Below the pieces are notes generated by a model, which was given only the letters and a program-made list of their open reading frames with translations, did no database searches and was not told where the DNA came from. Shown here piece after piece: positions 1-11,600 of a stretch of DNA of 37,459 bases. Source of the stretch: a virus (Duplodnaviria; Heunggongvirae; Uroviricota; Caudoviricetes); the IMG/VR virus record IMGVR_UViG_3300022562_000399; one strand, given 5' to 3'. The first letter of the stretch is position 1; the number at the start of each line of letters is the position of its first letter. The position numbers and the translations under genes were made by a program.

Positions 1-2888
1 CCGTACACGGTTCCAGGTGCCCACCAGTAAGCCGCCCCATCATGCTCCAGCCCAATGATAGGAATGGTCTTTTGACCCCCGGTTCGCTGAAGGGCCGTTT
101 CAATCAAATTTTCAACAGAGTCGCGCAAATCAGCAACGGAGTTCGCCGCCAAACAGAAACCGTCCGAACACCCTGGTACTGGGCTCATGCACCCGGCACT
201 TCCTGAGATCCACACCGGAATCGGCCCTGGTGCTGTATTCCATGACCCAACCGGTGCGCAGTCACCAGTCGAAGTCAGACAGTTGTTGTGGCACGTGCCA
301 TCTCCCCCTCCCCCAATATCGTCGCAGTAAGCGTAACGAAGCGCGTTGCCAGTTCCGCCGTTCGTGTTGTCGCATACACCCCCCAATTCACAATCCGTAT
401 TTGTCTGGCACGCTTTGTACTTGTCCCAAGTCGTGTCACACGCTGCGTTCGTCGTGCACGCATCACGGGAGCCCCACGGCTGATTGATGCACTGTCCTCC
501 AGAACACAACCCATCGGGGGCCGTCGCACAAAACATGCAATCGGAGTTGTCCGTGCACGCTACTCTGCTGGCACAGTCGCTGTTATCAGTGCAATCACTA
601 CACGAATTAAGCCACTCCTGGCTCATCGTGTCCCCGAACATCGCATCACCGTCTTTGCCATTGATGCACGTGAACGTGTGATCCGACAAACGCTCTCGAT
701 TCGTCGGACTGCACTGACACGGGCCGCCATGATCGGTGCCACCGTAGCAATACCCACTGGCGTAGTAGTCGCACGTACCATCATCACAATCGGCATCCGG
801 ACAATCGGCATTTGTAGAGCATGACGGTGTTCCGACGTGGTTAATGCACACCGACCCGGAACAGATCGGATCGGGACTACAGTTGATTCCCTTCTTCGTC
901 CCACTCGAACAGTAATAGCGCGGCGACAAACCATACAGGCCAAGATCGTTTTGTCCGATCACCACCATCACAAAATCTGGGATCGAGGACACGCCCGAAT
1001 CATTGCGAAGATACAGTTGCGACATGTGGTCCGAATCCAACAGATCGTTAGAGTTGGACGGGGCTCCGTTCAGAATGCCGTAGGTTGCATCGGTCCACCA
1101 CCGCGTCACATCACCCGACGTAGCGCCGCCAACCGTTGCAACCGAAATCTCTGGGATGTCCAACAGCGCAATCTGGATACCCTGATGCACTTCATCGTTG
1201 TCAGTAATGCTGTCCCCAACCAAACGGAAGTGCACAGGGCCATCCGTATTCTGGTCGGTTGCGACAGCTTCCTTGACCACCACTTCCAGCTTCAGCCCAA
1301 CCTCCATCAAGATGTCCGAGATTCTAGTGCGGTCCGCCGATCCACCAGCCCCCGAACCCGTGTTGTCTCCGAGAACGTCCACCGAAGCCGTGGCTTGCTC
1401 ACTCAACTCATCCAACCCAGTCCCGCTGGTCGTCTCCAGGGCTACCATCTGATAGCTTTCGTTAATATCATCCACCACGTCGAACTCTGGTCCAGTAGCC
1501 TCCCACCCAGCACAGTCGGTGTTGTTCGAGCACAGATGAATTTGCAGCTTGTTGTGTGGGCTCGACCCACCTGTGTTCTGATCACGCGCCACAACCGTCC
1601 CAGAGATGGCTGTGACAATCCCGGCTTCATTGGCGGACCAACCAGTTGCTGGGCTCGGATAGGAAATCGACGCGGTGTCCACCCACACTTCGGGGCTAGT
1701 GTTCTGCCCCTGCGTCAGCACATAGCTCGTATCACCGTCGTGTGACGACGTACCGCTGGTCTGATCATCCGTACACGTCGGCGAATCAGTACAGCTTCCG
1801 TTGTACGGTGACGAAGGCGAGCCAGCAAGATCCGCTTCTGCCACAGTCCCGTTCGGAACGCTTTCAAAAATGCCGAAGGATACAATCGCCGCGTCAGCGT
1901 TCGTCCCGGTAGCCACCGCCAAGTCATCAAGACGAAGATTCAACGCCGGACCAAATTCGACACTCGCTACGTTGGCAATCTCAGTGGACGGACGAACTTT
2001 GAACTGCTTCCCAGCGCCACTCGATTGCAAGGAGCACGTCACTGTTCCGTCACCGTTGTCCTTCTGCGACATGGTGGCCTCGAACCACGCTGGCATATTC
2101 AACGTGACAGACACACCGTACGGAGATGGTTTGCACCACTGCTCTCCATTCGTCTGAGCGTGGCACTCGTTCGTTTCTACGACGGTATCTCCATCGTCAG
2201 TGCAAGCCCCCCACCCAGTAGGAACGCCTGCATACTTGTAGTTCACGCATTCCGATCCCGCTTGGGTACAGTCCGCAGCAACTTCGCACGGAGTGCACGG
2301 GTCGTCATTCGTGCCACCTGTGCAAACGTACTTGCTCGACCCGAAGAACGTATTCAGCTTCACCTTCCCGTTACCAAGCCATACGATGTCCGTGTAGCAC
2401 TGGTCGTTACTGCTGCCGTCCTTGAACGTCATCAAGCGATAGCTACCATCCGCCGACATGAGGTCGGGGCTGAACAACACATGTGCCGAAATTTCCCCAG
2501 TTGCGGAGAAGTAAGACGACCCAACAACTACCTTCTCGTCTGACTCGTCGAACCACAAGTGCCAATCGTTGTCGGCTGTTCCTGGCGTGATGCAGATGGA
2601 CGAATTGTTGCTCCCAGTTCTACAGTCGGCGTTCGACGAACAAAACCGCCCCTGATTCGCACCTGAGTCATACTGACACCAAGCTGTTCGTGCAGAGGCA
2701 GACGACAGCGTCGGATCTCCAGTCACCGAATCGAACACATACGTCCGATTCGTACTCTTGAACGGCACAGCGCAAGTGGTGGAGCCTGTATAGCACCCCG
2801 TCTCGAAGCCGGTCATGAAAACGACTTCTGCCGCCAACGCATTCGTAGCAAAGAAAACGCTTGCTACAAGACCAAGTAGTTTAGTCAT
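1..2888 (-). CDS. Partial (>962 aa, runs off the left edge) signal-peptide-bearing Cys-rich protein with an SGNH/GDSL hydrolase domain; not in the ORF track
   Basis: Hand translation from the ATG at 2888 (TGATG overlap with the upstream stop) is open to position 1. It starts MTKLLGLVASVFFATNALA|AEVVFMTGFETG. SGNH block I FRLVGDSIT at 1203-1217, block II-like VGGATSGDV, block III PDFVMVVIGQND at 945-956. Block V (DxxH) would lie beyond the window. Confidence 0.85.
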   Translation of the reverse strand, partial: MTKLLGLVASVFFATNALAAEVVFMTGFETGCYTGSTTCAVPFKSTNRTYVFDSVTGDPTLSSASARTAWCQYDSGANQGRFCSSNADCRTGSNNSSICITPGTADNDWHLWFDESDEKVVVGSSYFSATGEISAHVLFSPDLMSADGSYRLMTFKDGSSNDQCYTDIVWLGNGKVKLNTFFGSSKYVCTGGTNDDPCTPCEVAADCTQAGSECVNYKYAGVPTGWGACTDDGDTVVETNECHAQTNGEQWCKPSPYGVSVTLNMPAWFEATMSQKDNGDGTVTCSLQSSGAGKQFKVRPSTEIANVASVEFGPALNLRLDDLAVATGTNADAAIVSFGIFESVPNGTVAEADLAGSPSSPYNGSCTDSPTCTDDQTSGTSSHDGDTSYVLTQGQNTSPEVWVDTASISYPSPATGWSANEAGIVTAISGTVVARDQNTGGSSPHNKLQIHLCSNNTDCAGWEATGPEFDVVDDINESYQMVALETTSGTGLDELSEQATASVDVLGDNTGSGAGGSADRTRISDILMEVGLKLEVVVKEAVATDQNTDGPVHFRLVGDSITDNDEVHQGIQIALLDIPEISVATVGGATSGDVTRWWTDATYGILNGAPSNSNDLLDSDHMSQLYLRNDSGVSSIPDFVMVVIGQNDLGLYGLSPRYYCSSGTKKGINCSPDPICSGSVCINHVGTPSCSTNADCPDADCDDGTCDYYASGYCYGGTDHGGPCQCSPTNRERLSDHTFTCINGKDGDAMFGDTMSQEWLNSCSDCTDNSDCASRVACTDNSDCMFCATAPDGLCSGGQCINQPWGSRDACTTNAACDTTWDKYKACQTNTDCELGGVCDNTNGGTGNALRYAYCDDIGGGGDGTCHNNCLTSTGDCAPVGSWNTAPGPIPVWISGSAGCMSPVPGCSDGFCLAANSVADLRDSVENLIETALQRTGGQKTIPIIGLEHDGAAYWWAPGTVY

Positions 2889-5641
2889 CATGGGCAGCTA
2901 TTCGCTCCAGCCAATTTCGTCCAGGTACTTTCACCTGCTGGGCACGCGCAAATGTCCCCAGATTGGTCAACAATGATTTGCCCGAAGTTGTTGCTTGCCG
3001 AACACGAGGGCTCCGCAGAAGGAGCTTTCCACAATCTCAGATCACCGCCACGCCCGCTTTGCCCCAGATCAGCAAGTGCAAACGCTCCACTCTCTTGCAA
3101 CAACATCAAGTTCTCACCCCCATTCTCTTGAATGTAAAATTGGTTGCCGCTTGCCCCTCTCATCTTCAAAAAAACCTGAGCCAAAACCCCAGCAACCAAC
3201 GTCGGGCTAACGCTGAACGACTTCGTGCCGTTGGCATAGTACATGTGCAGGGGAGTCGCGGACGAACTTGTCCAATCCAAAGAAGAATCTGTTGAGTTGT
3301 ACTTCACCCCAACTTGATCCGTGTCCCCCCATGTATGCAGGACGTTCGATCCGGCCCAACGGTCAGGAATGTCGGACGCCAGAATGTCGTTCCCCTGCTT
3401 GTACACGGTTGGTGCCAACGTGAGTACCACCTCACCAGCATCTCCATTCGTGCTCGTAAACTCAGGGTAATTCAGCTTGGTGTATTGGCCGACATCCGTC
3501 ACACCGTTTGCGATGTACACGCCGGGGGGGAAGAAGTTGCTGCTTTGTCCAGGCCCCTGCGTGCTGAACGCGGGAAGCGTACACGACCCACACTGGGCGT
3601 TGTACCCGGTGTCAGTGTACGTGTCGTCGTAGCCGTGGCACTGGCTGCCGTCAATGCCGCACGAGCAAATGCGACACACGTCGGTGGCACTCAATTCCAG
3701 AGCAATCACGAAGCACTCGTCCAAGTTACCGTCGAACACTTCCGGACCCGTGTCCCACGAAATCTCAAACGCCGCCGTGTTGTCACCCACATCGACAGTG
3801 GTCGCCTTCGTACCGTTGACCGTGGCGTTGATGTAACCTTTGCCACCGTTCCCACCAGTGCTGTACGTCATGACCGCGTGTCGCCACGTCCCATCAATCG
3901 GCCACGAACTATTGGCCGAGAACCACTGTTGATCCCGGATCATAAAGTCGAGTCGGCTGTTGGTTTCGTCCGTCCGTAACCAGTAGCCCTGCGTGTCGGC
4001 CGCGCCACGCTTGCGCATGATCTGCTGCACGGTATTCGTTCCGCCAACATCAATGTTGCGCGCCCAGCACCCAACCGACCAGTCTCGCGTACCACCGTCT
4101 AGATTCGTCGTACCGCCGCAGGTAGCATCCGTGCACGAGAAATACTCGTTCGTGGTCGTGCTCCAGTTCAGCAGAGCCGACTTCGCACCCTCACGATGCG
4201 CGTTGTTGCTGGGCACCGTGTTGTTGTCGGTCAGGTCACAGGACGCGCCACACGTTGTCGCCGTGTCGTTCAACCGGTTGCCAGACGCCTCGTCCATCCT
4301 CCACACCGACAAGAAGTAAGGCGTCCAGTCTGGAGCCTGGGCAAAGGAGCAATTGCTACCGTCCGCCAAACAGGGCTCCTGCCCGTCGAAGTACACATCG
4401 CCTTGAAACGACGCCGCTGGCCTTTTCGTGTCAATCTCAATCGACGGTGTAAACGACACCGTGGAGATCATCCGTCGGCCGGTCCCAGACATCGTGTCGG
4501 GCGTCAGCGTCCCGTCGATCAACAGGTTCGCCAGATCATCCTGCGGAGGGTGATAGTTCGTCCCACTCACCACAATCTGGTCCGTATCCAACCCAGAAGC
4601 GTTCAGGTTCTTCTGAGCTATGAAGGCAAACGGGCCACCAGTATTCGGCTGCGGGTTCATGAAGACGTTGCGGAACGTAATGAACGCCTGCGGTGGTGCA
4701 TCGACCAAATCGTTGTCCACCTCGATCACGATGAACGCATTGTCTGGGTTCGCCGTCGCATCGAACGACTCAGGAGCCTCGACGTTCAAATCTTCCAAGT
4801 CGATCATGTTGACGATCGACGCATCACTGCCGTTGAGAACGTGCAAGAAGCCCTTCGCCTGCCCGGCAGACGTAAACGTGTGATCGTACGTGATCTCCCG
4901 CATCGAGAACGTCGCCAACCCCTTGCCGGAATTGCTGGCATCTACGTTGACCCCCCAACCCTCGATCTTGTCAAAACGACTGCGCGTGATGTGGAAGTTC
5001 GTCGCCCCCTCGTCCATCAGGATCGCATCGACTCCGGCATTGCGAAACCTCACATCATCGAGCGCCGTGCCAAAATCCAACCGGCCCTTGTAGTGAATCA
5101 GCGTATCAGCGGACCGTACCTGGGCAGCCGGACAATACCCGGCCGACTCACCACCAGACAGACTCAGATGCCGGATCGGGGTGTTGTGCGTAGACGTACC
5201 GGCTGTCCCGATCTCTATGATCGTGTCGCCGACACTACCGCACCACTCGATCATGGATGGCCCAGTAGATCCAGACCCCTCCTTTCCGTAGGCACCACGC
5301 AATTCAACTCCGTTCGGAATCACGAGCGTGTCATTGATCAAACAGTGGCCCGGTGGAAAGTACACGACACCGTTTCCGTCCGTTCCCTCAGTACCACCGG
5401 TCGCGGCAGCAATCGCGGCCTGGATCGCCTGCGTGTCGTTGGTCACGGCACTCGCTTCAGACGACCCGTCACACACGGGATGGTACCCGTTGCTGAAGTC
5501 TCGGACGTTGTACCACCCCTCCGGCAACGGCTCGGACGGGTTACACCCAGTTCCATCCGAATAACAGTTGAACACGGCGGCTTGAGCCGCTGCGGGAAAC
5601 AGGGCCAGCGCCAACACGAAAACGATGTGTCGTACTTTCAT
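2888..5641 (-). CDS. 917-aa signal-peptide protein: pectate-lyase-3-like beta-helix plus LamG/concanavalin-like jelly-roll (tailspike- or adhesin-like)
   Basis: Starts MKVRHIVFVLALALFPAAAQA|A. WYNVRDF...NDTQAIQAAIAAA..GVVYFPPGHCLINDTLVIPNGVELRG is the typical tailspike beta-helix start. WRMDEASGNRLND...WSVGCWAR...WRHAVMTY...FDGNLDE matches the Laminin_G_3 pattern. 24 Cys by hand count. TAATG overlap with the upstream gene. Confidence 0.8.
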   Translation of the reverse strand: MKVRHIVFVLALALFPAAAQAAVFNCYSDGTGCNPSEPLPEGWYNVRDFSNGYHPVCDGSSEASAVTNDTQAIQAAIAAATGGTEGTDGNGVVYFPPGHCLINDTLVIPNGVELRGAYGKEGSGSTGPSMIEWCGSVGDTIIEIGTAGTSTHNTPIRHLSLSGGESAGYCPAAQVRSADTLIHYKGRLDFGTALDDVRFRNAGVDAILMDEGATNFHITRSRFDKIEGWGVNVDASNSGKGLATFSMREITYDHTFTSAGQAKGFLHVLNGSDASIVNMIDLEDLNVEAPESFDATANPDNAFIVIEVDNDLVDAPPQAFITFRNVFMNPQPNTGGPFAFIAQKNLNASGLDTDQIVVSGTNYHPPQDDLANLLIDGTLTPDTMSGTGRRMISTVSFTPSIEIDTKRPAASFQGDVYFDGQEPCLADGSNCSFAQAPDWTPYFLSVWRMDEASGNRLNDTATTCGASCDLTDNNTVPSNNAHREGAKSALLNWSTTTNEYFSCTDATCGGTTNLDGGTRDWSVGCWARNIDVGGTNTVQQIMRKRGAADTQGYWLRTDETNSRLDFMIRDQQWFSANSSWPIDGTWRHAVMTYSTGGNGGKGYINATVNGTKATTVDVGDNTAAFEISWDTGPEVFDGNLDECFVIALELSATDVCRICSCGIDGSQCHGYDDTYTDTGYNAQCGSCTLPAFSTQGPGQSSNFFPPGVYIANGVTDVGQYTKLNYPEFTSTNGDAGEVVLTLAPTVYKQGNDILASDIPDRWAGSNVLHTWGDTDQVGVKYNSTDSSLDWTSSSATPLHMYYANGTKSFSVSPTLVAGVLAQVFLKMRGASGNQFYIQENGGENLMLLQESGAFALADLGQSGRGGDLRLWKAPSAEPSCSASNNFGQIIVDQSGDICACPAGESTWTKLAGANSCP

Positions 5642-8600
5642 TAGTCTAGAAACTCCACAGCGACTCCCACCACATACGAGGAGTCCACCTCGCTAACCGT
5701 TCCGGTAGTCGTAGTCGCGTCAACTACCGCCCTGAAGTAAGCCGTATCATCTGGCTGGCACGTACCATTGCACGTGAGTGCTGTAGTATTCTCCGCCGTC
5801 TCGATGTCGTTCGCCGTCGTGAACGTAATGTCCACCGACTGGGCAGTGCCCCATGTCGAATTGACTGCGTCCGAATCGCCACGGCACATACACGACACGT
5901 CGAAGCCAATCGTATTCGTGGCCGCCTGAGTCTGAATTGCAGACAATTGCACCGTAACCGGCGTGTTTGGGTTGTACTCTTCGGGCAGCTTCATCGACCA
6001 CTCAAACACCCCGCTGGCATTGTCGTCACACTGCACCGAATACATCGACGGCCCAGAGTTCACCGTGATCCCGGCTGGAGCCGTACAAATAGACCCATCG
6101 GCCACCATGTTCTGCACCGGGGGCTCAATCGTATAGGCAGGCAACGGACGATAGGACCAACTCGACAACGAATGCGCCACGCTCGTCAAGTTGACGTACT
6201 TGTTCCCTTTGGCCTTTACATTCGCCAGGGGTGAGATCCAGCGGATACCGCGCCCAACCCCAGTGAACACGTTGTTCTCGATCACGTTGTCCTGCATGTC
6301 AGCCCCGGAATTGCACCCGCTACTGGCCATCCATACGAACGCGCCGTCCTGCGTCGTCGTCACACCATCGCCGATCACCGTGTTCCCACGGATCTGATTG
6401 CGCTCCATCGTGTTGCTCGTTCCACCATTGCACCACAACGCGACCCCGGCGATGTTACCAGTCGAGGCCCGGAGGAAAATCTGATTGTTCTCGATGATGT
6501 GGTCGTCCACGTTGTTGCTGGTTCCGTCCGCGTACACCATGATCGCCGCGTCGGTATTCCCCGAGCCGTCCCCGCAGTTCTTCAGGACGTTGTCGGTAAC
6601 GATGCTGTTGGACGACTTGTCGATCGACACACACTGGCCCGTCGCGACGTTATCAACCACGTTTCCGGTGTTCGTGATGAACTTCGTGTTCGCGTTCTCG
6701 ATCCCGGTGAAGTTCACGTCTCGGATCTGGTTGTGTGCCACAGTCGAATTGATCGTTTTGGCGACACTGATGCCCATGGACGAATTGGTGCCGTCACCAA
6801 TCACGACGTTGTCCGTGATGATCAACCCCTCCTGCAACGCATCCGTGCTCCAGAACTCCATCCCAATTCTGTTGAAGTCCTCGCACACGTTGCCCGTGAC
6901 TTCCGTGAAGTTCGAGTCCTCACCAATCCACAGACAGTTCGAGTCATTGCCTCCAGCACCATTGCCGAGAGTCTTAAAATGGTTCCCCTTCACCTGGCAG
7001 CCGATACAGTTCTGGTTGAAAACCAAGCCGTAGCCACCGTTCTTCGCAGCACCGATGTTCGTGAACAGGCTGTTCTCCACGATCATACGGTTTGTGTTGG
7101 CAGACGACCCGACCACGCGGATTCCGCGATAGCCAAAATCGTCGAACCACACGTTGCTGATCTTCATATCGTCATTGTCACCGGTCAGGTTTCCAACCTT
7201 GAACGCGGCCACATCTCCATACGACGCTTGGTTGGAACTGTTTCCGTCTAGCTTGAGGTCCGACATCGTGAAATTGTCAGTCCCACTCGTGACGTTCGTC
7301 AAAAAGTAGTTCGACACCGCATCGTCGGTGGCTTCCTTCAAAACCGAGTTCCACCCACAACCCTTGATGTGCACGTTGCTCTTGTACGTCAGCGTAGACG
7401 ACACACAGGTCGCATTGCACGGGAACTGCACGATTCCACCGCCAGCCGCATTGGCTGCGTCGATCGCGGCTTGGATCGCGGCCTGATCGTCGGTCGAGTT
7501 GTCGCAGGCTGCGCCGCCAGCGTACGCCGGGTTCGTGATATCGAATATGGCGGCGTCGTCCGTGTACGAACACAGCCACGACGTGCCGTTACACACGCAA
7601 AGCTCGTCGGTGTCGGTGTCGATGTAGCTGATGCCCGGCGTCCGGAAGTTGCACGCAATCGGCGACGTTGATGCGGCGCCAAGAAAGCCGAGCATGAGCC
7701 CGGTATTGACGATGTTGCGGCCGTTGAACTCGGTAATCGCATCCGGGCCAGCCAAGCCATCCGGAGTGTACGAGTACCACTGGCGGTACGCTTCCCCACT
7801 ATCAGGGAACGTGGAGAGCCCAGGAGGCCCCGCGAGCATGGGCCAGGTTTCCGGGATGAATATTTGCTGGCCAGCGATAATCGTAGCATCGTCTGCGGCG
7901 TTGTTCGTCTGCTCGACTATGGCTGGTGTTCCGACTCCACCGGCCCCGGCAACGGCGAAGTTGTCGAAGTTCAGCAGGAACTGCATCTCTGGCGAATAGT
8001 CTGGGTTCGCCTTCAGCACAATGTAAGCGTCTTCTGGGTTATCGAGGGCTTGGTTCGCCTCGATGTACCCGTTCTCTATAGAGATGCGATTGATGGCGTT
8101 GTTCGGCTGCGCGCAGTCCGCATCAGCAGTACAGGATGGTGGGCCACACTGGTCAGTGCCAGAACAATCAGCGTTCGTCTCACAGGTGATGTTGTCAGTC
8201 ACACACCGGTCGTAGATACAGGTCTCGGCTCCCGTGCAGTCGCCGTTCGTGGCGCACGTAGTAGTATCCCAGCACCTCGTGATCGCATCATCACACTGCG
8301 TGTTCGTGGCCAACGTGCACGATCCTCCGTCCGTATCGACACGAAGGAAGCCATTCGCCGTATCCGACCCGGTCGTATCGAACGTGAAGTCACGAAGCGT
8401 AAGCTGGGCTCCAGCCCCTCGGCCTTCCAAGTTGAAATCAATGACGTATCCAACGACGTTGTCCGCTCTCCAATTCTCGAACACGGTATTGAGTGCGCCG
8501 TTCTCAAACTGCACGGCAGGGCCATCGAAGGCCGAGAACTGCACGTTCTCCAGTCGTGTGCCGGAATCAGTCGTTTGCCGGTAACGAATTGCGGTGTCCG

Positions 8601-11600
8601 CTCTGGTGCCACCACCTCCAGCGCCACCATAGAACAGCACATCCTTGATCCAGGCGTTGTGGTAATTGTCGGTCTGGTCGTCGTACTCTAGGATCGTACC
8701 TCCGGCCGCGCCAGTCCAATTGAGTCTCGAATTTTGAGAACCTACAGTCGCCGACCCTCGGCACCCTTGCAAAGCCACGCTATTCGACCACGCCAACGTA
8801 GCAGTCAGCGAACATGTGGTGTTGCAGGGCAACCGTACAATGCCCCCACCATCCGCCTCGGCCGCATCATGAGCCGCCTGAATGTTCGTAGAGTCACACG
8901 TGCCAGACACACGGTACACACCCAGGGCGCTATCCCGAACCGTTGCGGAAACTACATCAGGCGTTCCCGCCGCGAGGGAGAAGTTGATCTCACCGTCGTC
9001 AGCAAGACGAAGGGTCGCATCGGTGGATGCGGTGAACGTACCCGCATTCTCTCCGTCTTCGATTTCGACGGCACGTCCACCTCCAACCACTTGCGCATCG
9101 ACGTACGCCTTGATGGACTCGGCGGACGCTGGCTGCGTAGCAGTAGCGGTCGCCATCGTGTCGTCGTCAAGCAGGGTCGCCGCACCATCACACGTTCCCG
9201 TCAACGGAGTAACGACCGTCCAGGCATTCCCATCGCACCAGCAAAGTGTCCCCTGCCCGGTGGTCGTGTCCTCGTAAAAGTCGCCTAGCTGGCTCGTCGT
9301 GCAGGTATACGGCGCGGTTCCAGAGGACGGAGCCGTCAACTGCTTCCAAGTCGCAGCCGTCGTACACGACTCGAAGTAGGATTGATTGCAAACGTAGTAC
9401 ACGTCAAGCGTCGTGTCGTGGCAGAGCGATTGCCCCTTGGCCTTTCCACTGGTCTCACCTCGGCAGTTCGACGAGTCGAATGCGTCAGCAAAGCGCCGAT
9501 AGAGGCCGCCCGTGGGGCTGTTCGAGTCACCGACCAGCAACTTGCCGCGAGACGTGTCGAAACGCACCTCGCGGTTAAACAGAGAATCATTGATGCGTTC
9601 AGGAACTACCGGACCTTCACCCAACCGATCCTCGTTGTCCGACGCACTGATGAAGTTGCTGACGAACGACCCCGACATGGACGCGCCAGCAGCCAAATAC
9701 GTCGAGTCGAAGTCACCCCCAAAGAAGCCGTCGATGTTGTTGAACGAACTATTCTCGATGCGCAACCGCTCACCGGACGTGCTCGTCGTCCTCGTGCGCG
9801 CGATGACGTAGTAGGGTGGCGGGTCGCTGTCGAGAGCGGTGCTGGTAATGTCCCAAGTCACATCTTCGAGATGGATGTTGAGAGCGACGCTGTTGCTGGC
9901 GGCTCCATAGTTCAAGTCAATGAACCCGGCGTTGTTCGCACTCGACCCCATCTCCGCGTTGGTCTCGAAACGGCCGTTGGACACACTCACAATCGCAGCA
10001 GACGACGGGTTCGCCGTCAGGTCGAAGTACAGCAGGGCACGACCGGTCAAGGTCGTCACTTGATAGTCAGAAGTCCACCGATCCAGCGAGAACCCCTGCA
10101 AATTGGACGACGCAGGAAGGACGGTACGGATCGCGTACACGCCGAAGCCGTCGAAACGCACATTGCGCGCGTGGAAGTTGGTTATGCCGTTCGGCAGGTA
10201 GATGGCCGAATCGGTGTTTTGCCCGAAATGCGTCTTGTCCACGTCCAGGAAGATGTCTGCACCATCAGATTGCAGCCAATACTTCGGCGTGGTCGCACCG
10301 GCCCGCAAACTCATGCCCCCAAACCGGTAAAACGAATAGCCACCCGGCGCCGTGTTTGCGATGTGGAACGCCGCACAGTCCGTGCCTGGAGTACACGATC
10401 CTCCAGCCGTACCTTCCCACACAATGCGAACGTCTTTGTTCGACGACAGCCCACCAAGCAAGTCCGCACTCTTCAGGTTGATCGTCGCCGACAGGTCATA
10501 CGTTCCGGGGTGAATCTTGATCACGGGGAACCCGGTGGACGAATCCGACGCCGACACGCAGTTGGTTTGTGCGTTGTCGATCTCAGCCTGCAACGCCGTA
10601 GTGATGTCGGTACCGTCCAGCCCCTCTCCGAAGTAGATTGTGTCACAAGCAGGAGCCACGTTCGCAGTAGCGGCATCGACGTATGCTTTGATCGACTCCG
10701 CCGACGCTGGTACTGAGCCCGTCACTCCGGTGGTGAACGTATCGTCGTCAATCAACTCCGACTGCTGTATGTAGTCAGTGCAATCCTCGGCCACCCCACC
10801 AGCAGTCACCCCACCAGCGCCAGTGCCAGCCGCACAATTTCCACCATTCCCAGCAAGAGCCGTAGCCGTGCCGACATTCAACGCCGACGGAGCCGTGAAG
10901 ATGAAGTCGTCTGTGCTGGTCGGGTCCACCTGCACGATGTCGTTCAAGTTCGGCGTGTCCGCGATGTTGGACAGATTGACGGGGACCACCACGCCATCTC
11001 TCAAGTTCGCGGTCAGAACATCAGGAGTGCCAGTCGTCAAGATGAAGTTGATGTCCGCATCGTCTGCAATGCGGAACGTCGAATCAGCCGACGCTGTAAA
11101 CGTGCCGGCGTTGTTCCCATCCTCCACCTCGAACGTCTGGCCTGTTGCCCCCGTTCCGACTTGCTCCCAACTCCCAGATCCAACTCCACAGGTCTGCGCA
11201 AACGCCTGATTACAGAACCACAGAAAGCCAGTTCCAGTCTCCTGACAATAGGTACCACCCTTCGCGCTCGTCTGGTCGCAGTCGGCCACCTTGGTCGTGG
11301 GGTAGTACGTGTTGTAACTCGCCGTCTCGTCCCCGGCCCGCAACGCATCCCAATCCGACCGGACGGTTAGCTCGCCAACGGCTGTCGGATTCTGATTGAC
11401 CGAACTATTTGTGATAGTCCCGGCGTCAAGAATCACACGGTTTCCAGTCCCAGACGTTAGTTCGAGTATGTCTGACGTTCCGACCGGCAACGGCAGATCC
11501 TGATAGGCCGTCGGCCAATCGGTCCCAACGGAACCGGCAGTCTTGAAAATATTTCCGTCAACACCGGCATCGGCCTGGTTAAAGCTAGATGTTTCTACCT

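Follow-up and report, generated by a model that had tools for sequence, protein, structure and literature searches.

A stretch of 37,459 nucleotides from a tailed virus of the class Caudoviricetes (IMG/VR record IMGVR_UViG_3300022562_000399), referred to below as the window, carries at its left end a minus-strand open reading frame (ORF) in which the opening motifs of an SGNH esterase are followed by a long run of cysteines. An earlier note made from the letters alone (the sequence-only reading) had proposed that this ORF, missed by the gene track, encodes an SGNH esterase split by a cysteine-rich insertion and used by the virion as a glycan deacetylase. The locus therefore raises the question of whether a complete SGNH domain exists on the two sides of such a block and, if it does, where a protein of this kind would fold and act. 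Here we describe the complete gene, its catalytic domain, its insert and its relatives, and argue that the product is best read as a multidomain carbohydrate O-acetyl esterase that is made late in infection, exported by Sec and stabilised by disulfides, a reading to which we give a probability of roughly 0.6.

In the ORF list and its translation the frame occupies window positions 3..2891 (-) and stays open through the left edge. The 917-residue neighbour of the esterase is also recorded on a 25.9-kb contig of the Joint Genome Institute (JGI), a stretch of which, L001, is 100% identical to window positions 1-15641 and continues for 5951 nucleotides beyond them. On L001 the esterase ORF is complete at L001:12751-16662 and comprises 1303 codons (protein P0002), of which the window holds the first 963. 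The features of the gene are listed below, with residues counted from the first ATG.

3..2891 (-), first 963 codons of the esterase gene, the remainder lying at L001:15640-16662
2829..2891 (-), predicted Sec-type signal peptide, residues 1-21, its n-region basic, its core hydrophobic and the predicted cleavage site preceded by A-L-A
1872..2828 (-), N-terminal beta-sandwich, residues ~22-340, with small cysteine-rich loop inserts of its own (low-confidence AlphaFold model)
1257..1871 (-), second beta-rich region, residues ~341-545, conserved across the family and modelled at a predicted local distance difference test score (pLDDT) of 25-50
912..1229 (-), N-terminal half of the SGNH domain, residues 555-660, blocks I-III, no cysteine (PF13472 and PF00657 matches)
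153..911 (-), cysteine-rich insertion, residues 661-913, 32 cysteines (cysteine counts, motif statistics)
3..152 (-), start of the C-terminal half of the SGNH domain, residues 914-963, the helix and strand after block III (PF13472 match)
L001:15751-15762, outside the window and 38 codons past its edge, block V with D1001 and H1004 (translation of L001)
L001:15946-16659, outside the window, Thr-rich linker and 228-residue C-terminal domain with 8 cysteines, residues 1066-1303

It fits the remark that the track had missed this ORF that the frame leaves the window and that the JGI gene call on the identical contig begins at an internal Met (L001:13546), giving a product of 1038 residues. Judged from the family alignment the true start is the ATG at 2891, because the homologues align from the signal peptide onward.

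The frame contains the full set of SGNH catalytic residues. Block I is GDSIT (residues 559-563, at 1203-1217), which contains the nucleophile S561 and is where the PF13472 alignment begins, at profile position 2; the sequence-only reading had named S560 for the control mutant, and the numbering has to be corrected by one when counting from the first ATG. The block II region is GGATSGD (residues 588-594, at 1110-1130), a segment at the expected place whose G588 is invariant in the family; one of its Gly residues would supply a backbone amide to the oxyanion hole. Block III is GQND (residues 646-649, at 945-956), with N648, and the profile match of the N-terminal half ends at position 80. For GDSIT and GQND the positions given earlier were exact. 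The same reading had staked its case on finding a DxxH block V further downstream, and this block is present as D1001-R-I-H1004-P. It lines up with block V in SGNH esterases of solved structure, and all nine full-length family members have its Asp and His.

Profile searches place the two halves of the domain on either side of the cysteine block. When Pfam was run on the in-window fragment alone there was no SGNH match, and a match appeared only once block V was included. With the piece covering residues 540-1070, residues 919-1011 matched PF13472 (Lipase_GDSL_2) from profile position 81 to 177 at E 2e-8, the score of 35.4 bits lying above the cutoff of 32.9. The N-terminal half matched PF00657 at positions 4-92 (E 0.017). 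The PF13472 segments of the two halves are exactly complementary (2-80 and 81-177), and the cysteine block falls between positions 80 and 81. The resumption of the fold with a helix and strand, as foreseen, is seen in residues 914-948, which align to PF13472 from position 81. Four of seven family members matched PF13472 at E up to 1, and a profile search of PDB sequences returned SGNH esterases as its only matches, at block V.

An AlphaFold2 model of residues 540-1066 was built from the seven-sequence family alignment with the insert in place, and in it both halves assemble as one three-layer alpha/beta/alpha SGNH fold. The pLDDT was 70-86 for the SGNH core (70-82 for its N-terminal half) and 22-50 for the insert. 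The best VIA-align match, E. faecalis 1yzf, reached Z 18.8 with a root-mean-square deviation (rmsd) of 2.0 A over 173 of 195 residues, the aligned range of the model (13-484) running across the insert. All of the top 50 matches were SGNH hydrolases, many of them carbohydrate esterases (Axe2, CE3, sialate O-acetylesterases, Ape1). The top matches in Foldseek searches of the PDB and of the BFVD viral structures were likewise dominated by SGNH proteins, with half-domain alignments at E 0.003 or weaker; the insert breaks these alignments, which is why VIA-align was needed. Among the BFVD matches are SGNH-bearing tail fibres and minor tail proteins of phages, as partial fold matches. The triad, the complementary Pfam halves and the single-fold model make it very likely that a genuine and complete SGNH domain, split after block III, is encoded here.

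The insert itself is sharply delimited. Residues 660-913 contain 32 cysteines (12.6%), against none in residues 541-659 and one in residues 914-1030; the first, C661, lies at 909-911 and the last, C913, at 153-155, so that the 253-residue block from about 911 to 153 had been drawn with exact limits. All five copies of C-x-x-[ND]-x-[DA]-C that had been named as tandem units (CSTNADC, CTDNSDC twice, CTTNAAC and CQTNTDC) are present, compared with a mean of 0.12 and a maximum of 2 in 5000 composition-preserving shuffles of the insert. A conserved core of 20 cysteines opens with the module C-x-x-G-T-x-x-G-x-x-C-x-x-N-x-D-C, continues through G-Y-C-x-G-G-T-D-H-G-x-P-C-x-C, a Y-C-I-N-N turn and a C-x-D-N-S-D-C cluster, and closes with G-C-x6-C-x-x-G-x-C directly before the helix that resumes the SGNH fold. 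Lineage-specific modules are added to this core, by which the window protein and the relative P0006 gain 12 further cysteines. Searched alone, the insert had no match in Pfam, NCBIfam or an ESM Atlas feature search. Weak matches to Zn_ribbon_bTOP1, Toxin_23, DX, DUF5763 and DUF7107 were rejected as short cysteine-pattern coincidences, far under the cutoffs.

The chain leaves the SGNH fold 13 residues past N648 and re-enters it one residue before the usual post-block-III helix, which gives a spacing of 353 residues between blocks III and V in the window protein. The catalytic face of SGNH enzymes is built by four loops, those of blocks I, II, III and V (PMC9487903). The insert lies in the one just after block III and so emerges from an active-site loop, as the sequence-only reading had proposed. 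From this placement it is likely to stand next to the cleft as an additional wall or arm, shaping the polymer accepted. The suggested role as a lid or binding arm is plausible from this position, and binding as such we hold only as a tentative idea.

Small modules of the CxxNxDC type also occur elsewhere in the family. P0010 (L009:4225-7380) has two, the first between blocks II and III and the second following the fourth strand; in four family members one precedes that strand, and in the window protein several are found in the N-terminal domain and a single one past block V. One small module thus lands in different loops of a single fold, and such modules may be a natural means of adding stabilising hairpins to extracellular enzymes.

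When 1.84 billion cluster representatives were searched exhaustively with phmmer, eight matches emerged: the query, six relatives of full length and a fragment. Two more full-length members came from a profile search and one further fragment from a scan of genome contigs, so that the split-esterase family stands at nine full-length proteins and two fragments. All nine carry the insert at one and the same site, with 164-280 residues and 20-33 cysteines; P0005 and P0010 have short versions of 164-167 residues. Its cysteine count is even in eight of the nine, and the odd count of 33 may stem from the alignment boundary. None of the nine full-length members departs from S561, G588, N648, D1001 or H1004, and the constancy of the Ser, Asn, Asp and His argues for retained catalysis. 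The residues of block I vary (ATDS, ISDS, GGS). No relative of the esterase region was found by tblastn in 50,697 GenBank phage records, scanning viral and metagenome contigs yielded nothing beyond the contig of P0006, already known, and the whole protein had no PHROG match, tail fibres included. As far as these searches reach, the split design is common to no more than about ten phage proteins. Phage structural or lysis genes are present on all contigs examined, except for a 2.3-kb fragment with only another signal-peptide gene. The labels of two metagenome-assembled genomes, Candidatus Binatota (L009) and Myxococcales (L010), were rejected as host assignments, the sequences concerned being a 75.8-kb phage-like contig and the 2.3-kb fragment.

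The regions on either side of the SGNH domain were also modelled or searched. A model of residues 22-545 had a mean pLDDT of 47. Its first ~320 residues resemble concanavalin-A-like jelly rolls (lectins, glucanases, alginate lyases), with 5joz_B as the best VIA-align match (Z 11.8, 163 residues, rmsd 3.1) and Z 9.4 against the lectin-like domain of the Stx-phage esterase vb_24B_21 (6yp6). The N-terminal domain is therefore probably a concanavalin-A-like jelly roll, which we offer as a lead only. After block V comes a conserved knot of five to six cysteines, then the Thr-rich linker and the 228-residue C-terminal domain. The latter had no Pfam match, and tblastn against the same GenBank phages found no relative of it. 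At this place P0009 has a Laminin_G_3 domain.

The esterase is one of a pair of genes. Its ATG overlaps the stop of the upstream 917-residue gene as ATGA (window 2888-2894, -), an arrangement that suggests translational coupling. An overlapping upstream partner gene is found in all five further loci, with a signal peptide, 2.8-5.3% cysteine and a length of 436-778 residues. The partner genes and the slots of the two-gene cassette are as follows.

Window phage, cassette after the tail tip
L002:8493-10019, partner gene
L003:5587-7434, partner gene; cassette at L003:5587-10805 between capsid and connector genes of an HK97-type phage
L004:8706-10016, partner gene; cassette at L004:8706-13729 in a T7-like phage, flanked by portal and scaffold genes
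L005:7671-10007, partner gene; cassette at L005:7671-14020 among SU10-type tail genes
L009:2768-4357, partner gene on the 75.8-kb contig of P0010; cassette before an endolysin-like gene

Homology is clear among three of the partners and weak between these and residues 704-806 (the C-terminus) of the 917-residue window protein; the L004 partner had no BLAST match. A GGTG motif begins the mature part of several partners. One partner weakly matches the Mtd N-terminal domain (E 2.4e-4), and a comparison with PDB sequences gave no useful match, only a repeat match to DotG. Partner and esterase together appear from sequence to behave like a mobile two-gene unit across unrelated phage lineages.

In these loci the N-termini and cysteines follow a common pattern. 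The esterase N-terminus has a peak Kyte-Doolittle value of 2.6 over 10 residues, against at most 1.9 in virion proteins, and an equivalent signal peptide is present in all eight full-length relatives. The n-h-c regions with small residues at -3 and -1 recur in all nine members of the family, in five partners and in three other neighbouring proteins. Cysteine numbers are even in the esterase, its eight relatives and the upstream partners examined, while neighbouring true virion proteins have neither even cysteine numbers nor a signal. In the window phage the pattern is confined to five consecutive genes for proteins of 1029, 3118, 917, 1303 and 209 residues, which follow the gpJ-like tail-tip gene and precede the lysis genes.

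Window 2888-18068 (-) and L001:16717-17346, five-gene signal-peptide block, with basic-hydrophobic-AxA N-termini, 2.6-8.1% cysteine and even mature cysteine counts
L001:17390-19509, lysis cassette after this exported block, with an SLT-type endolysin, a 101-residue holin-like and a 130-residue spanin-like protein

The capsid, portal, tape-measure and tail-tip proteins have 0-1.6% cysteine and no hydrophobic N-terminus. In four other phages signal peptides and high cysteine contents are mostly limited to the partner-esterase pair, and one of these phages has two more such genes. The signal peptides and the cysteine contrast with the virion proteins argue for folding outside the cytoplasm and against a tailspike built in the cytoplasm, and we regard export of the esterase as quite likely. 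Where a virion protein would be expected to have an N-terminal anchor, the sequence predicts a Sec-type signal followed by a jelly-roll-like domain common to phages of several morphotypes. The earlier proposal of a virion esterase like G7C gp63.1 thereby becomes doubtful, given the Sec-type signals and even cysteine counts in family and partners and the position of the cassette between head genes in other phages.

The wider setting is that of an uncultured marine-sediment siphovirus, known from metagenome contigs only, of which the window covers the late region, with genes for a protease, the major capsid protein, a tail terminator, a tape measure and a 2104-residue gpJ-like tip protein. The major capsid protein is 49% identical to those of the ~100-kb phages RcZahn and DLP_5. 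The gene next to the esterase encodes a pectate-lyase-like beta-helix. The SLT-type endolysin (L001:17390-17962; phrog_669, E 7e-38) lies two genes downstream of the esterase, and of the small proteins of the lysis cassette the 101-residue one has a single hydrophobic segment and the 130-residue one a lipobox. The stretch examined of the 75.8-kb contig carries the cassette and the endolysin-like gene, which we take to be GH108 from its N-terminal motif alone. Among the other loci, L002:1-686 carries a terminase gene with an intein, L003:12377-14809 an 810-residue double GT2 glycosyltransferase within the structural module, and L005:2968-3387 and 14040-14495 HNH endonuclease genes in the tail gene block, one of them directly after the esterase gene.

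These observations can be joined in a model of an exported esterase. The mature protein would consist, in order after the signal peptide, of a lectin-like beta-sandwich, the second beta-rich region, the SGNH domain, the small cysteine knot, the Thr-rich linker and the 228-residue C-terminal domain. S561 would act as nucleophile, with an oxyanion hole formed by the block II Gly region and N648 and with D1001 and H1004 as acid/base pair. Because the full catalytic set is present, esters should be hydrolysed, most likely acetyl esters and by the usual acyl-enzyme mechanism. Since the esterase and its translationally coupled partner both bear export signals and paired cysteines, the esterase would most likely be exported to fold and act in the periplasm or outside the cell, and the 32 cysteines of its insert are predicted to form 16 disulfides. 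The target would probably be an acetylated envelope or slime polysaccharide of the host, attacked alongside the adjoining exported beta-helix proteins, and the insert would stand beside the catalytic cleft as a substrate-shaping wall or arm. For a polysaccharide as the substrate we put the odds slightly better than even.

Several points weigh against this model. The esterase gene occupies the tail-fibre slot directly after the gpJ-like tail-tip gene, which fits a virion protein too. The whole 1303-residue protein scores 32.5 bits on PF13472, 0.4 under the cutoff of 32.9, and the N-terminal half matches this profile weakly when taken alone (residues 558-655 to positions 2-80, E 0.15). The insert and the N-terminal domains are modelled at low confidence, and the case for export is built from sequence rules and conservation.

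The slot after the gpJ-like tail-tip gene and ahead of the lysis genes is the usual position of fibre genes, and the esterase and its partner might be exported first, fold in the periplasm and then dock at lysis onto particles built in the cytoplasm, as a receptor-modifying appendage of tail or head, the SGNH domain destroying a receptor that the insert binds, in the manner of a haemagglutinin-esterase (HE). The conserved and translationally coupled partner genes and the weak match of one partner to the Mtd N-terminal domain would suit such docking, but the same N-terminus in sipho-, T7-like and SU10-like phages leaves no morphotype-specific anchor domain, the cassette lies between head genes in two phages, and to our knowledge a post-lysis docking mechanism is unheard of for tailed phages. 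We consider docking unlikely, even with the precedent that the esterase of the haemagglutinin-esterase-fusion protein (HEF) is likewise interrupted by a receptor-binding domain between N117 and D356/H359 (PMC4729479; PMC9487903). A complete phage counterpart of these proteins, Sec-exported with a fibre-like partner, folded in the periplasm with a disulfide-knotted receptor-binding insert and loaded onto finished particles at lysis, seems rather improbable; if true, it would be part of an undescribed extracytoplasmic branch of tailed-phage assembly. A tailspike esterase assembled in the cytoplasm, of the G7C gp63.1, Aristophanes or Possum kind, would draw on the documented occurrence of SGNH deacetylase domains in phage tail proteins (PMC8471582, PMC9569702), on the SGNH-bearing tail fibres and minor tail proteins among the BFVD matches and on the pectate-lyase-like beta-helix of the adjoining gene. 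Its N-terminus would then be no export signal, and its cysteines would bind metal or oxidise after release. This we judge improbable in view of the n-h-c regions shared by nine members, five partners and three further neighbours, the sharp cysteine contrast with true virion proteins, which points to another folding compartment, and the lack of any match among PHROG tail fibres or in the 50,697 GenBank phage records.

The neighbourhood of lysis genes allows a different task, that of an Ape-like peptidoglycan O-acetylesterase which, exported before lysis, would help it by removing O-acetyl groups from MurNAc and so letting the phage lytic transglycosylase cut. Lytic transglycosylases are blocked by O-acetylation (PMC1199599), an SLT-type endolysin lies two genes downstream and an endolysin-like gene follows the cassette in the P0010 phage, the structural matches include C. 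jejuni Ape1 (Z 15.6), and N. meningitidis Ape1 also has a domain inserted in its SGNH fold (PMC9487903). Yet Ape1 ranks 41st, under many carbohydrate esterases, the cassette is away from lysis genes in three phages, the neighbours are beta-helix proteins of polysaccharide type, and a protein of over 1000 residues that has lectin-like domains and is paired with a fibre-like partner is far larger than such a task requires, so that a lysis helper is very improbable. That the SGNH domain is instead an acyltransferase in the style of OatA, PatB or OafB, or a catalytically dead binding scaffold, we find hardly credible: the same triad can serve transferases (PMC9487903) and block I varies among members, but the Ser, Asn, Asp and His are invariant in nine of nine, and no membrane acyl-donor partner (AT3 or MBOAT) occurs in any locus (window phage, L002-L005).

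If the preferred reading of an exported esterase is true, some phages move large carbohydrate-active enzymes across the inner membrane in late infection, and it bears on how signal-peptide-bearing, fibre-like phage proteins relate to the virion. Among known systems, the small GDSL/SGNH esterases 1yzf (E. faecalis), Axe2 (3w7v) and yeast Iah1 (3mil) are the best structural matches (Z 17-19 over 170-190 residues, 17-21% identity); they share the same four catalytic blocks but are single-domain proteins of ~200 residues. In E. coli TAP the spacing from block III to block V is ~80 residues. Proteins of the G7C gp63.1 type are not known to carry a signal peptide; they contain few cysteines, their SGNH domain is uninterrupted, and the N-terminus anchors them to the virion. 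As in the window protein, the SGNH domain of phage deacetylases (G7C gp63.1, Aristophanes, Possum, the epsilon15 esterase petal) is part of a large multidomain late-region protein, and phage SGNH tail enzymes are expected to deacetylate host surface polysaccharide, as proposed here (PMC8471582, PMC9569702). NanS-p and vb_24B_21 of Stx prophages are late-region phage esterases of the SGNH superfamily with a lectin-like jelly roll (PMC10462455). They differ in belonging to the SASA subfamily, with an atypical oxyanion hole, a continuous catalytic domain and no cysteine-rich insert. Nor are these esterases known to be parts of the virion.

The carbohydrate-binding module (CBM) of Ape1 is inserted at a different site, early in the fold, and Ape1 has no cysteine-rich array. 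N. meningitidis Ape1 and the CE2-type enzymes are periplasmic or secreted SGNH esterases with a CBM within or appended to the fold (PMC9487903). In these cellular proteins the inserted module is a beta-sandwich CBM, whereas the cysteine-rich insert described here is phage-encoded. No HE or HEF chain was among the matches listed by Foldseek against the PDB or by VIA-align. The receptor-binding (R) domain of HE and HEF has the form of a jelly-roll lectin and not that of a cysteine-knot array of low complexity. HE and HEF of influenza C/D viruses, coronaviruses and toroviruses are viral receptor-destroying SGNH esterases with a non-continuous catalytic domain (PMC9487903). In HEF the receptor-binding domain lies between the oxyanion Asn N117 and the acid/base pair D356/H359 (PMC4729479), and it occupies the same topological interval as the window insert, from the block III Asn to block V. 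HE and HEF enter the secretory pathway by a signal peptide and are disulfide-bonded (PMC4729479; PMC9487903), to which the predicted export and paired cysteines of the window protein correspond. They are membrane-anchored envelope proteins of animal viruses with no sequence relationship to it, and the likeness is an analogy of design, not homology. SGNH esterases on phages and domain insertions in SGNH folds (Ape1, HE/HEF) were thus already known. What is new is a conserved array of disulfide type, 164-280 residues long, without a recognisable family and sited in an active-site loop, together with a conserved export signal and with travel beside an exported partner as a two-gene cassette among unrelated phage lineages.

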